IMG/VR virus record: IMGVR_UViG_2531839449_000043
Origin: a virus
Lineage: Duplodnaviria; Heunggongvirae; Uroviricota; Caudoviricetes
Reading direction: 5' to 3' (one strand)
Length of the DNA: 52,541 nucleotides
The position numbers were made by a program. Below are positions 39,401-42,400 of this stretch, one piece after another. The stretch's first letter is position 1. Every line of letters begins with the position of its first letter.

Positions 39401-42400
39401 GATGGCGGGTTTTTTATTGCCCGTACAGGGCAAAAACCGTAAATTATGCGTGGGTGCCTTTCGGCTGATGGCTGGAGGGTGAACCTGAAGGCCTGATGTG
39501 GAAAGGCCCCGAGTCAACTTAACGTTAACCCGAGGCCCTAACACTTCGTACCTTAAGCAAGTAGAAGGTTAGCGCCTCTCTGTAAAAGGAGTCAAGCGCT
39601 ATGTCGCAAAAATCGCTTATCACCGTCACAATTTGCATGACGGTTATCTTCACCATCTGGATGTTGCACGGTTCACTGTGTGAGTTCCGGCTGAATTTGT
39701 GGGGAGCGGAGTTTGCGGCGTTCTTACAGTGTAAGCAGTAGGAAAACCGCGACGGGGACGAGAGTCCCCGTCAACTGGTTGCTGAGGTTCAGCCGATATG
39801 GCACCCGTTTCAGGTGAGAGAATGAACGATAAAATTCTCTGGTATATGCAGCGTGTTGTGAGAAATTCCCGCAACCCTGAATTTATGAATGAAGTTAAAG
39901 ACGCCTGCCTTAAAAAGCAGGCGTTTTGTTTTGAGGCACCTGATGGCTTTTTGGTGCTGCGTTCTGTGCTCAGTGCTGATGGTATCCCTTATGTTCTGGT
40001 GTTGCTGGGCGTGTGTACGGGGAGTAACAGCGTTGAGCGTTACCTGCCGGAGGTGAAGACATTAACCCATCTGGCTGGCGGACGCTGGGCTGAGTTCCAT
40101 ACGGCAAGGCGGGGATTTATCCGGCTGGGAAAACGACTGGGCTTTGAGCGAATGCCGGATGATGAGGATGGCTTCATGGTGTTCAGGATAGCGGTCTGAC
40201 TGCTACAGTTTTCATCATTGTGTTTAAACCAACATTGTAATTCACATTCTGACCCTGCTCCGGCAGGGTTTTTTGTTATCCAGGGGGCCATTATGGGTGG
40301 AAGTAAAGGCGGTGGTGATACCAAAGTAAAACCAACAGCAGCGCAAATAGCACAGGAAGAAGTGGCCTGGAAAGGGTGGCAGGATTACAAAAATATCCTC
40401 CGCCCGGCTGAAGATAACTTCATGGAAAAGGTCGATGACCTGAACAGTGAGCAGCAGTACGACAATATTGCTGGCACCACAAATCTGGGGTATCAGAAAC
40501 AGTTTGGCGAAGCACGGAAGGAGCTTGCGGGTAATCTTGCTCAGTCCGGCGTTGACCCATCCAGTGGTCGTTTTAATGCGGTAATGAATGCGAACCAGAG
40601 TGACCAGGTAACCGGGCAGATTGACACAACCACACGGGGGCAGGTATCGCAGGCAGATAAGTATGTTGCCGGGCTACAGGATGTTGCTGCTCTCGGTTCT
40701 GGTCAGAAGGCGGATGCGTTACAGAGTTTTAACTCTCTGGCAGACAGCAGTCTGGCAAAAGCTAAATCGGATGCACAGGCGGCGTTTACGAAACAGCAGG
40801 GGCGAGCCTCTCTTGTTGGCGCTGGTCTGGGTGCGGCAGGTGCATATGCGATGCATAAGGCTGGCGGTAGCGGAGGAAGTGGCGGTGCTAAAACACCTGG
40901 CACCGGCGCTAATGCCATTCAGCATCAGGCTCAGAACTGGAGACTGTGATTATGGAGTACGGTAAATACGAAACACTTGCAAGATACGGTTATACCGGAG
41001 CAGCCCGCCCTCAGGGGGACTGGCAGACATCCGCAGCGCTGACCCGCCAGCAATACGACGACTGGCGCACCAGATATTTACCCCGTGTAGCAAGGCTGGC
41101 TGACCTTGGGGAGAACAACAGTCTGATGAATGCACAGCTTGCACGGGTGGGAGGCCTTGCCACTTCCAGTCTCCGTACAGCGCAGATGGCGCAGGATAAC
41201 CAGATGGCGAGATACGGGGTAAACCGCCCGGATAATCCCGACAGTAATACGCTGGGGTTACGTAATGCCCTGGCAATTGCTGGCGCGAAAAATGGTATCC
41301 GTGAAGCCGAACAGGATCGCCAGATGAATATTCTGACGGGGGCTTCTGCACCGGCAAGACAGAAACTGAGTGTTGGCGGCCAACTGGTGGCAGCGTAAGG
41401 GGGCAATATGGGATACGGTTTACTGGATATTGCAAATCAGTCGCGGCGTGAGGCATTACAGGGAATAAGTGACGCAGACAGACGACGTGAAGAAATTGAG
41501 GCTGCGAACAAACAGATGGCGGCGCAACAGAAAGCGCAGAACAAGCAGAATATCGGTACGGGCATTGGTACGGGGGCGGCTATTGGCGCATCCGTTGGTG
41601 GTCCTGTTGGTGCTGTTGCTGGAGCAGTAATTGGCGGCATTGCTGGTTCTTTGTTTTAAGGAGTGGTGAATGAGCGGATTTGCACAGGGGTTACTTGCCG
41701 GATTCAGCACCGTTGACCAGGCAATGACCCGTCGTAAGGAGCTTGGTCTGCGTGAAGCACAGCTTGCCCGGCAACAGAAAAATAACGAGCGCGATTTTGA
41801 GTTTGCGCAGTCTCAGTTTGAACATAATAAAAACGTTGATCAGCGGAACTTTGATTACAGAGCCAAAGTTGACGACCGTAATTATGCACTGAAGGAAAGG
41901 GAGTTTAACGCTAACCAGAATTACCGGAATGCGTCACTGGGTATGGAGCAGCAGCGACTCCAGTTGCAGAAATACAACCAGCGACGGCTTGAGTATAACG
42001 ATATGATTGCCCATAGCCAGCCACTAATGGAAGCGCTTGGAAAAGCAATTGAGGCTGGCGATCAGGAGGCTGCAACGCGTCTGTTCGGGCAGCTGCCAAA
42101 GGGACATCCATTAATTCTTATGTCAAACGAAGGCTATGCAGCGAAAGCGGGTCAGGCCGTGATCAACCTGCAAAAAATCTTTGGTGATAAGCCGGACATG
42201 GCGATCGATTCGCTGAATACCCCGGAAAATCTCGATGTGCTTTCCGGCGTGTTTGCCCCGGAACTACAACAGCGTATTGGCATGCCTGATTCAACCGGGG
42301 ACAAAACGATAAAAGAGGCCAGGATTGGCAGTATCGTACCAGCGCAGCAGGAAGGGTACGTACTTATTGGCCTTGATCTCACATACAGCGATGGCTCCAC

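Follow-up and report, generated by a model that had tools for sequence, protein, structure and literature searches.

Plasmid R1's hok/sok system (PMC9841398) produces a small membrane toxin from an mRNA whose ends pair through tac and fbi and which refolds after 3' trimming, together with a cis-antisense RNA that has a 5' tail left single-stranded and a hairpin at its end. In R1, translation of mok up to the hok Shine-Dalgarno (SD) sequence is required for Hok synthesis (PMC9841398). Hok/Gef genes are numerous in O157 genomes, with 12-14 reported (PMC2887945), and HokW, encoded by the hokW-sokW locus of phages 933W and Sp5, is by experiment the toxin of a toxin-antitoxin system of type I (Takada et al. 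2021, PMC8621323). At the scale of the whole family, Escalera-Maurer et al. (bioRxiv 10.1101/2025.08.07.668861, v2 Jan 2026) catalogued Hok peptides from RefSeq genomes and, according to the accessible parts of this preprint, analyzed coding sequences only, leaving Mok, Sok and the mRNA elements outside; cluster 72 is one of their "high-abundance" 60%-identity clusters.

Here we analyzed a stretch of 52,541 nucleotides (the window; IMG/VR record IMGVR_UViG_2531839449_000043), which is a Stx2a prophage. The stretch between lom and the homologue of the 933W gene L0129 is very probably a type I toxin-antitoxin cassette of the hok/sok type, complete and about 390 bp long.

A Hok/Gef family gene beside lom

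A preliminary description had pointed to a 46-codon ORF bearing the marks of a Hok protein. The ORF is indeed present on the plus strand (39601-39741), running from ATG to TAG and encoding MSQKSLITVTICMTVIFTIWMLHGSLCEFRLNLWGAEFAAFLQCKQ, in which the expected SLCExR and E-AAF motifs are seen as GSLCEFR and AEFAAF. The Hok_Gef profile search that had been suggested was positive, as Pfam HOK_GEF (PF01848) scored 33.2 bits (E 4e-8; gathering cut-off 22 bits), aligning residues 8-44 of the peptide with profile positions 6-42 of 42. PHROG 251 matched over the full length with 85.8 bits and the closest NCBIfam model was HokA. When the peptide was aligned with HokW, HokC, R1 Hok, HokE, HokB, PndA, SrnB and a HokA-like sequence, the LCE motif and the hydrophobic core fell in register, in agreement with the proposed Hok-family transmembrane helix and with the family layout of a hydrophobic N-terminal helix, the L-C-E motif and a polar tail. 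Thus the peptide belongs to the Hok/Gef family, and this ORF is the only Hok-like one among the 999 six-frame ORFs of the window. Homologues fall into 56 protein clusters; Cys27 and Cys44 are invariant and E28 nearly so in 25 subfamily members, and the reading frame is unbroken in each of the 27 sequences compared, the window and 26 loci found in E. coli, E. albertii, Citrobacter and Salmonella. A PDB sequence search with the peptide revealed no relative.

We also looked at how the locus is represented in existing records. Over this region, 933W and VT2-Sakai/Sp5 match the window with 100% identity, and 88 phage records do so with at least 99%. The original GenBank records of 933W and VT2-Sakai show an empty spacer of 429 bp at this position, so that calling the locus unannotated is correct for those records only: RefSeq/PGAP names the ORF "Hok/Gef family protein" (WP_000078907.1), and the peptide is catalogued. 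In addition, a Pharokka-annotated phage record labels it "MokW-like host killing", the PHROGs name being "MokW-like". In the accessible parts of the preprint (bioRxiv 10.1101/2025.08.07.668861), an identical peptide is listed as 72_1589 (Table S2), cloned in plasmid LRP157 under an arabinose promoter, and the 3 of 45 cloned homologues given as non-toxic are 19_179, 60_1482 and 69_1540, among which 72_1589 does not appear; it thus counts among the homologues reported as toxic when induced in E. coli. As far as those parts go, the killing test that had been proposed for this ORF is in effect already reported for the identical peptide. Because RefSeq names the ORF and an identical peptide has been catalogued and tested for toxicity, the lom-side locus is an ordinary finding of a known kind, and of little weight as a discovery. 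Nonetheless, analyses built on the 933W and VT2-Sakai reference records miss a toxin gene, as their spacer is empty. A literature search on hok beside lom in 933W found nothing; for EcOnc linked to sok or hok, no paper containing "EcOnc" was among the top matches listed, and a search for Faridani 2006 gave nothing specific.

We asked whether the ORF could be the published hokW-sokW and rejected this assignment, as hokW lies elsewhere in 933W and the hokW primers and probe of PMC8621323 find no site in the window even with 2-3 mismatches allowed. The 933W and VT2-Sakai/Sp5 phages carry two different Hok loci.

The adjacency to lom was borne out by the profile match of the upstream gene (Table 1), and hok shares its strand (+) with lom, the tail fibre genes and stx2AB. 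Downstream, the PHROG profile (phrog_610) spans residues 9-133 of a 133-aa ORF, and the true start of this L0129 homologue is likely the ATG at 39822, 3' of fbi. An ATGAAC recurring 3' of fbi was considered as the start of a shared downstream ORF and rejected, since in P2-like contexts it opens 7 codons only, followed by a terminator.

Outside this prophage, the intact cassette was found in Salmonella, in a genomic island next to urease genes, and in other prophages, where it follows ogr in P2-like and gpJ in lambdoid ones. Its presence in several contexts indicates that it moves as one unit. The diversity of homologues comes from E. coli RefSeq matches and from Salmonella loci retrieved by exact protein look-up; the scan of genome contigs contributed 7 loci only, of which 3 are probable contaminant contigs.

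Table 1. Elements of the lom-side hok-type locus and its neighbours, in window coordinates
Feature	Coordinates	Strand	Basis and remarks
lom, Ail/Lom outer-membrane protein	38634..39368	+	Pfam PF06316, 110.3 bits; lom in 933W annotation; context, outside the module
Intrinsic terminator of lom	39392..39410	+	Terminator scan; 8-bp stem and T-run; T-tail abuts the hok promoter -35
hok-mRNA promoter, predicted	39417..39445	+	-35 TTGCCC (39417-39422), 17-nt spacer, -10 TAAATT (39440-39445); read from the sequence
Full-length hok-type mRNA, predicted, 355 nt	39452..39806	+	Block conserved in all homologues; homology boundaries 39432-39806
tac, GGGUGCCUUUCGGC, mRNA 5' end	39452..39465	+	Pairs with 39792-39806, within fbi, in the MFE fold; alignment helices 1-2
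Sok-like antisense RNA, predicted, ~58 nt, putative ends	39500..39558	-	Aligned with annotated sokW of 933W
Weak hairpin, plus strand	39502..39539	+	AAAGGCCCC (ucb/anti-SD equivalent, 39502-39510) pairs with CCGAGGCCC
Leader segment pairing with 3' UTR 39775-39787 in the full-length form	39550..39564	+	Also complement of the Sok 5' tail
sok promoter, predicted	39566..39595	-	-35 TTGACT (39595 down to 39590), 18-nt spacer, -10 TAACCT (39571 down to 39566)
hok Shine-Dalgarno AAGGAG (39586-39591) and CUCU (39578-39581), small hairpin	39578..39591	+	Partly held; MFE pairs 39588-39591 with 39581-39578
hok-family toxin ORF, 46 aa and stop	39601..39741	+	Pfam, PHROG and NCBIfam profiles; peptide identical to 72_1589
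Coding segment UUGCGGCGU pairing with start region AUGUCGCAA (39601-39609)	39713..39721	+	Helix 9
3' stem-loop, conserved, 10 bp	39750..39773	+	Terminator scan; helix 14
3'-UTR partner of leader 39550-39564	39775..39787	+	Consensus helix 6
fbi, CAGCCGAUAUGGCACCC, partner of tac	39790..39806	+	MFE fold and consensus; GCACCC kept in hokW too
Downstream gene, 933W L0129 homologue, phrog_610, function not assigned	39822..40199	+	PHROG profile; context only

The mRNA fold and a probable antisense RNA

The predicted mRNA is strongly structured, with an MFE of -155 kcal/mol and a z-score of -5.98 against shuffles. The preliminary description had proposed a structured leader of about 180 nt in a locus beginning at 39420; the structure is there, while the leader measures 149 nt (39452-39600), and position 39420 falls inside the predicted promoter. 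We then examined the fold in an alignment of 20 homologues, on which the counts for covariation, promoters and strand stability rest. In the consensus structure, 96.6% of cells are paired, versus 36-43% when partners are slid, 20 pairs show compensatory changes, versus 1-12 in the slid controls, and the covariation score was reached by none of 500 shuffles. The RNA structure of the hok-type mRNA is conserved.

Results also showed which parts of the fold carry this signal. Helices 1-2, formed by tac and fbi, are 98.6% and 90.6% paired, helix 2 being changed on both sides at all five of its pairs, and tac lines up with GGGTGC at the start of the hokW mRNA; the fold-back mRNA that had been anticipated is thus supported by covariation. 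Helix 6, between the leader and the 3' UTR, comprises 10 pairs, with both sides changed at 4 of them. Helix 9, which pairs the start region with the coding sequence, comprises 9 pairs (99.4% of cells paired), 5 of them without any variation. The stable hairpin expected after the ORF was found as helix 14, with compensatory changes among homologues at 5 of the 9 counted pairs. At the hok SD hairpin, homologues carry CUCC...GGAG. In the weak plus-strand hairpin, CCGAGGCCC includes a GAGG aligning with the mok SD of hokW, with no start codon after it.

When the 3' end is removed, the MFE prediction, made on one sequence, pairs tac with 39498-39510, and the SD and AUG stay paired. The terminator scan of the window found none 3' of fbi, and therefore the 3' end of the mRNA is a prediction only. 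The Rfam model RF01794 matches the leader (39452-39614) over its full length with 35.6 bits (E 7e-6), where the gathering cut-off is 59; other homologues of the subfamily score 42.8-57.5 bits and hokW 113.5 bits.

A consensus promoter scan of both strands found no promoter at the thresholds of the tool, and both proposed promoters (hok and sok) rest instead on conservation and on the alignment with sokW. For the mRNA, TTGCnn and TAnAnT recur with equal spacing in homologues from unrelated genomic contexts. On the minus strand, the -10 TAACCT is invariant in the 20 homologues and aligns with the sokW -10 of 933W, presumably the site mutated with primer YO-421 of PMC8621323, whereas the -35 varies (TTGACT, TTGCCT, TTGCTC or TTTACT) at a spacing of 17-18 nt.

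Based on sokW, the antisense RNA would begin at a G located 6 nt after TAACCT and would end after GGGGCUUUU. It is predicted to open with a single-stranded 5' tail of 21 nt, to continue as a hairpin of 16 bp (39539 down to 39503) and to finish with a tail of UUU, with a minus-strand fold of -34.3 kcal/mol (z -5.7). In 20 of 20 homologues the hairpin is stabler on the minus than on the plus strand (mean -22.7 versus -13.5 kcal/mol), because C.A mismatches of the plus strand become G-U pairs on the minus strand, and this argues for a Sok-like RNA of about 58 nt. The antisense promoter and hairpin are conserved and, in silico, homologous to those of sokW, consistent with the Sok-like RNA that the preliminary description had suspected. 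Judging from the sequence, this RNA is probably the antidote of the toxin.

We propose the following mechanism by analogy with the described systems. The plus strand would yield an mRNA of about 355 nt (39452-39806) for a 46-aa inner-membrane peptide of the Hok family. In the full-length form, tac would pair with fbi, the leader would be held by the 3' UTR, and local and long-range helices would bury the SD and AUG, so that this message would be inert. A constitutive minus-strand promoter (TTGACT-18-TAACCT), overlapping the hok ribosome-binding region, would make the ~58-nt Sok-like RNA, fully complementary to the leader at 39500-39558. Once 3' trimming or refolding frees the target, the Sok-like RNA would pair with the mRNA and inactivate it, possibly through RNase III as for Sok and sokW. 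In this scheme we infer antisense RNA expression, 3' processing and the RNase III step, as well as any role in the phage life cycle. The MFE folds of the truncated forms, in which the SD and AUG remain buried, count against the model, as do the Rfam score under its cut-off, the empty promoter scan, the missing terminator 3' of fbi and the lack of an overlapping mok frame.

The missing mok frame and possible roles

We looked for a mok-like frame in the window and in the 20 homologues, and no consistent one was found. In the window, all three leader frames are stopped between 39554 and 39585, no frame crossing the hok SD begins with a start codon, and the position of the mokW ATG is occupied by ACC in the alignment. 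An upstream ORF overlapping hok exists in 7 of the 20 aligned homologues only, with differing starts and frames. As Hok synthesis in R1 needs mok, native translation of this hok stays a prediction; moreover, with no mok frame overlapping hok, control would operate via the mRNA itself or via a short non-overlapping leader ORF.

Tentatively, the cluster-72 subfamily may represent a mok-independent branch of hok/sok, having kept the equivalent of the mok SD, its pairing with the 3' UTR and the Sok target while losing the mok start. In this branch, Sok would act on the fate or structure of the mRNA, or by way of a short non-overlapping ORF in the leader, and not by blocking mok, and in 933W and Sp5 the locus would be a second, hitherto overlooked Hok module acting beside hokW-sokW during induction. 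A second module in Sp5 could explain some of the residual phenotype seen with the published deletion of hokW-sokW. With mok absent and the hok RNA architecture otherwise complete, this subfamily is also suited to testing the family-wide need for mok coupling.

A role in the lytic cycle like that of HokW is possible rather than probable. Late transcription antiterminated by Q would pass the lom terminator, make hok transcripts and disturb the convergent sok promoter, and Hok would then aid membrane damage and progeny release. At the Sp5 hokW-sokW locus, mitomycin C leads to loss of sokW and production of HokW, and without this locus only half as much phage is released (PMC8621323); the orientation of hok, shared with stx2AB, the tail fibre genes and lom, also fits. 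Moreover, the Sp5 deletion mutant still had the lom-side locus, as the region is 100% identical in VT2-Sakai. This deletion being the sole functional study, conclusions on Hok and the release of Stx phages may be incomplete. Against it, the lytic role is one that we infer throughout, and the cassette also occupies non-late positions (ends of P2-like prophages, chromosomal islands), so that no role linked to late transcription could hold for the cassette in general.

It is rather doubtful that the locus serves as an addiction or defence module, stabilising the prophage through the death of cells that lose it, or aborting infection by other phages once host transcription has ceased and the labile antisense RNA has gone. 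Post-segregational killing is the classical role of R1 hok/sok, with T4 exclusion also reported, and prophages show an enrichment of hok genes of about four-fold; on the other side, a 2026 micropublication, as far as its accessible part indicates, re-evaluates the role of hok/Sok in T4 defence (PMC13047441).

We consider it unlikely that the locus is a natively silent relic, toxic only when forced from a vector and, in the absence of mok, neither translated natively nor of any function to the prophage, a view already put forward for chromosomal hok loci. The dependence of R1 Hok synthesis on mok translation (PMC9841398) is in line with this idea, as are the paired SD and AUG in the MFE folds of 3'-truncated forms and the chromosomal hokA, hokB and hokC, reported as unable to mediate post-segregational killing (cited in the accessible parts of bioRxiv 10.1101/2025.08.07.668861). 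Decay, however, would not be expected to leave the ORF intact in 27 of 27 sequences, nor to keep every RNA element, including the antisense promoter, with compensatory changes, and the 88 phage records agree over the region at 99% identity or more. Finally, a chance short ORF in the intergenic spacer, for which nothing but the small size would speak, is refuted by the Pfam, PHROG and NCBIfam matches, the 56 homologous protein clusters and the conservation with covariation.

Comparison with described Hok systems

The hokW-sokW locus of 933W/Sp5 (PMC8621323) belongs to the same phage family and has the same overall architecture as the complete cassette proposed here. Their alignment extends over the entire unit, from the 5' GGGTGC to the 3' GCACCC and with AGGTTAGC included; the sok -10 TAACCT is common to both, as is a hairpin followed by a U-tail. 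In 933W, hokW-sokW lies about 13 kb downstream of the lom-side locus on the opposite strand, and it is absent from the window. HokW has 51 aa, is HokD-like and is 33% identical to the 46-aa peptide; moreover, hokW-sokW has an annotated mokW frame, whereas no overlapping mok is present at the lom-side locus, and the hokW leader scores far higher on the Rfam model (113.5 versus 35.6 bits).

The tac/fbi pairing and the antisense RNA features of R1 hok/sok were found in silico at the lom-side locus, and the switch of tac to 39498-39510 upon 3' truncation, predicted on one sequence, would resemble the tac/ucb model of R1 (PMC9841398). R1 Hok has 52 aa and about 30% identity to the 46-aa peptide. 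In contrast to R1, the lom-side locus lacks mok, encodes an extra conserved Cys near the C-terminus, and is borne by a phage and not by a plasmid.

In the catalogue of Escalera-Maurer et al., the accessible parts do not describe the lom-side position in Stx phages, the absence of mok or the RNA anatomy; they place HokA in 60% cluster 93 and the 46-aa peptide in cluster 72 (bioRxiv 10.1101/2025.08.07.668861). HokA, of E. coli K-12 hokA/sokA, is nonetheless the nearest named paralogue and its equivalog is the best NCBIfam match, although the peptide reaches 38.4 bits on the HokA equivalog NF007290, far below the cut-off of 89. A HokA-like sequence shares about 48% identity with the peptide, and both encode two cysteines directly (LCE ... 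AAFL-x-CK).

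The toxin gene and its surroundings

We found the toxin ORF at 39601-39741 (+), precisely where the preliminary description had placed it. It opens with ATG and closes with TAG after 46 codons; its product is MSQKSLITVTICMTVIFTIWMLHGSLCEFRLNLWGAEFAAFLQCKQ. The proposed Hok-family identity was borne out by the profile search suggested as a check, since Pfam HOK_GEF scored 33.2 bits (gathering score 22), as well as by PHROG 251 'MokW-like host killing' (85.8 bits, full length). The closest NCBIfam model was the HokA equivalog, at 38.4 bits far under its cut-off of 89. When the window's 999 six-frame ORFs were searched with a profile of 9 family sequences (8 other Hok-family toxins plus the query peptide), no second Hok-like one appeared. 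The neighbour named as lom is indeed the upstream gene, Ail/Lom (38634-39368). The label 'unannotated' holds for the original 933W and VT2-Sakai records, where the 429-bp lom-L0129 spacer is blank, but not for RefSeq, which names the ORF 'Hok/Gef family protein' (WP_000078907.1). Observation and interpretation were both right.

The window represents an Stx2a(-converting) prophage with its right-hand junction, because it carries stx2A and stx2B, tRNA genes and STnc100 and ends in the chromosomal gene yfdC. At the right end (~45400-52541), an ~8.4-kb ORF is followed directly by yfdC (-); a near-identical genome labels the product of this ORF (2789 aa) 'LPD38 domain-containing protein'. Elsewhere on the minus strand, a C4 antisense RNA match (78.9 bits) adjoins a match to the Hfq-binding RNA isrK (61.7 bits), both above gathering score.

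Across 39370-39800, 933W, VT2-Sakai and many more Stx phages show 100% identity; in total the region matches 198 phage records, 88 of them at >=99% identity, and 1675 of the 5426 complete E. coli genomes have it. Homologues with 77-92% DNA identity share a single block, 39432-39806, regardless of surroundings: the cassette follows ogr in P2-like prophages and gpJ in a lambdoid prophage, sits next to urease genes in a genomic island, and is found in Salmonella, E. albertii and Citrobacter too. An intrinsic terminator, CCCGCAGCGTAAAAACTGCGGG (L016 1875-1920; also L015, L010, L009 and L017), comes after the cassette at its position just past ogr in the P2-like prophages; this terminator is absent from the window. 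Short contigs that carry near-identical copies (L007, L008, L010) bear the labels Xanthomonas pisi, Planococcaceae MAG and Vagococcus sp.; most likely they reflect assembly contamination. Two homologous loci have further features downstream: in Salmonella enterica subsp. diarizonae (L020) the hok homologue is followed at 240 nt by the gene for a 19-aa Ibs-family type I toxin (1581-1640, -), so that two type I toxin genes adjoin each other, and in the O157 genomic island with urease genes (L005) a STAXI RNA (134 bits) and a sub-threshold EFASI match (48.9 bits) lie ~2 kb beyond the hok homologue.

The identical peptide is catalogued as 72_1589 in a high-abundance cluster and was cloned as LRP157 (bioRxiv 10.1101/2025.08.07.668861, v2 of 27 Jan 2026). 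According to that preprint, 42 of 45 homologues tested are toxic and 72_1589 is not among the three named as non-toxic; Mok, Sok and mRNA elements are placed outside the analysis by its authors. An earlier count gave 12-14 Hok/Gef genes in O157 genomes (Fozo et al., PMC2887945). The locus, already RefSeq-annotated, catalogued and reported toxic, belongs to a very well-known family and is of little novelty. In the accessible literature we found no element-by-element account of its RNA anatomy, no description of its missing mok frame and no remark that a second locus stayed intact in the sole functional study of Hok in Stx phages.

The predicted hok-type mRNA and antisense RNA

The two ends of the predicted 355-nt RNA pair in the fold (z = -5.98). 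The RNAalifold consensus of a 20-sequence alignment holds 82 pairs, with 96.6% of cells paired, a share that falls to 36-43% in controls with the 3' partners slid 1-3 columns, and 20 pairs changed on both sides compared with 1-12 in the same controls. The observed covariation score was attained by 0 of 500 shuffles, a count that shared ancestry may inflate, and the slid controls, which retain relatedness, concur. The 'stable hairpin' described after the ORF corresponds to the 3' stem-loop, whose helix this consensus supports.

Features of the locus, the window and a related island
Feature	Position	Strand	Detail
C4 antisense RNA / isrK matches	4278-4365 and 4390-4465	-	
Three tRNA genes	15044-15292		precede stx2A/stx2B
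stx2A, stx2B	15386-16626		319 aa, 89 aa
STnc100 match	16701-16902		185.7 bits; after stx2A/stx2B
Predicted weak hok promoter	39417-39445	+	TTGCCC-17-TAAATT, read from alignment
Conserved mRNA 5' end	39452	+	GGGTGCC, alignment
tac/fbi helix	39452-39465 with 39790-39806	+	inner helix, 5/5 pairs covary
Predicted Sok-like RNA	~39558 to ~39500	-	21-nt free 5' tail, perfect 16-bp hairpin, UUU tail
Small hairpin holding part of SD	leader	+	consensus-supported
Leader/3' UTR helix	39550-39564 with 39775-39787	+	consensus-supported
Start region AUGUCGCAA helix	partner 39713-39721	+	consensus-supported
3' stem-loop	39750-39773	+	consensus-supported
Conserved mRNA 3' end	39800-39806	+	GGCACCC, alignment
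STAXI RNA / EFASI matches	L005 5058-5209 and 5685-5838		

Read on the minus strand, the 3' stem-loop is also terminator-like (stem, then CGGTTTTCCT) and might stop antisense transcription coming into hok from downstream. Another hairpin, 39901-39924 within the phrog_610 gene (L0129 homologue), is terminator-like on both strands, with TGCCTTAAAAAGCAGGCG plus TTTTG on the plus strand, and could be the true 3' end of read-through hok transcripts.

The locus can be aligned with hokW-sokW over its whole length. SokW is annotated in the 933W record as a 71-nt minus-strand RNA starting 7 nt past TAACCT, which we infer from primer YO-421 to be the -10 element mutated by Takada et al. to silence sokW (PMC8621323). 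TAACCT is kept without variation in 20/20 subfamily sequences, and the -35 of the putative sok promoter, 17-18 nt upstream, reads TTGACT in the window and TTGCCT, TTGCTC or TTTACT elsewhere. Where the minus-strand hairpin has G-U pairs, its plus-strand version has three C.A mismatches, and the minus strand is the more stable in all 20 homologues (mean -22.7 vs -13.5 kcal/mol). No other sequence-level argument for selection on a minus-strand RNA is as strong as this asymmetry. For RF01794, the Rfam family named 'sok' (antitoxin), it is the sense strand that matches (39452-39614, +; also L027 429-603), with a consensus spanning the hok mRNA 5' end up to the hok AUG. What the model depicts is therefore the hok leader and not the transcribed antisense RNA; its score is 35.6 bits here and 113.5 for hokW (cut-off 59).

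Leader reading frames and possible roles of the cassette

In R1 and hokW, a mok frame begins after a GAGG SD and overlaps hok, and Hok synthesis requires mok translation up to the hok SD (PMC9841398). At the lom-proximal locus all three leader frames are stopped between 39554 and 39585, and none of them has a start codon opening a frame across the hok SD. Overlapping upstream ORFs of any kind occur in only 7/20 homologues, with varying starts and frames. A leader ORF of 24 codons (GTG 39498 to TAG 39572) stops 14 nt short of the SD and might, in principle, open the anti-SD hairpin; neither its frame nor its length is conserved. ATGTGGAAAGG, preceded by GAAGG (39496-39572, +), is kept in most E. 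coli homologues and opens leader ORFs that vary in length and frame owing to hairpin-loop indels; in the homologous loci L003 and L011 this ORF continues into hok. MFE folding of 3'-truncated RNAs relocates tac to 39498-39510, with no release of SD or AUG seen in these folds.

The evidence best supports a functioning hok/sok-type module, which would comprise a fold-back mRNA held inert, a labile antisense RNA encoded in cis, whose promoter would overlap the ribosome-binding region of hok, and a membrane toxin. On induction, late read-through transcription might provide more hok mRNA and interfere with sok, considering that hok lies on the late-gene strand directly after lom and that hokW-sokW offers a precedent (PMC8621323). 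The cassette might also serve addiction or exclusion. It may be natively silent, as mok is missing; the preservation of all RNA elements, with compensatory changes, argues against decay.

Comparison with hokW-sokW and R1

Identity with the published hokW-sokW was rejected, as the primers and probe of Takada et al. (PMC8621323) are not in the window. HokW in that study has 51 aa (MKQQKAM...YESEK; PMC8621323) and shares 33% identity with our 46-aa product, and hokW, mokW and sokW are annotated in 933W ~13 kb downstream of the lom-proximal locus, on the other strand. Therefore, 933W and Sp5 hold two distinct Hok loci. The prophage portion of the window has only the lom-proximal one, the hokW-sokW region of 933W/Sp5 being missing. 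The sole functional Hok study in Stx phages did not remove this second locus. Compared with hokW, GAGG is kept here but the position of the mokW ATG reads ACC in the alignment. The predicted shift of tac is the one expected from the tac/ucb model of R1, though SD and AUG stay paired in it.
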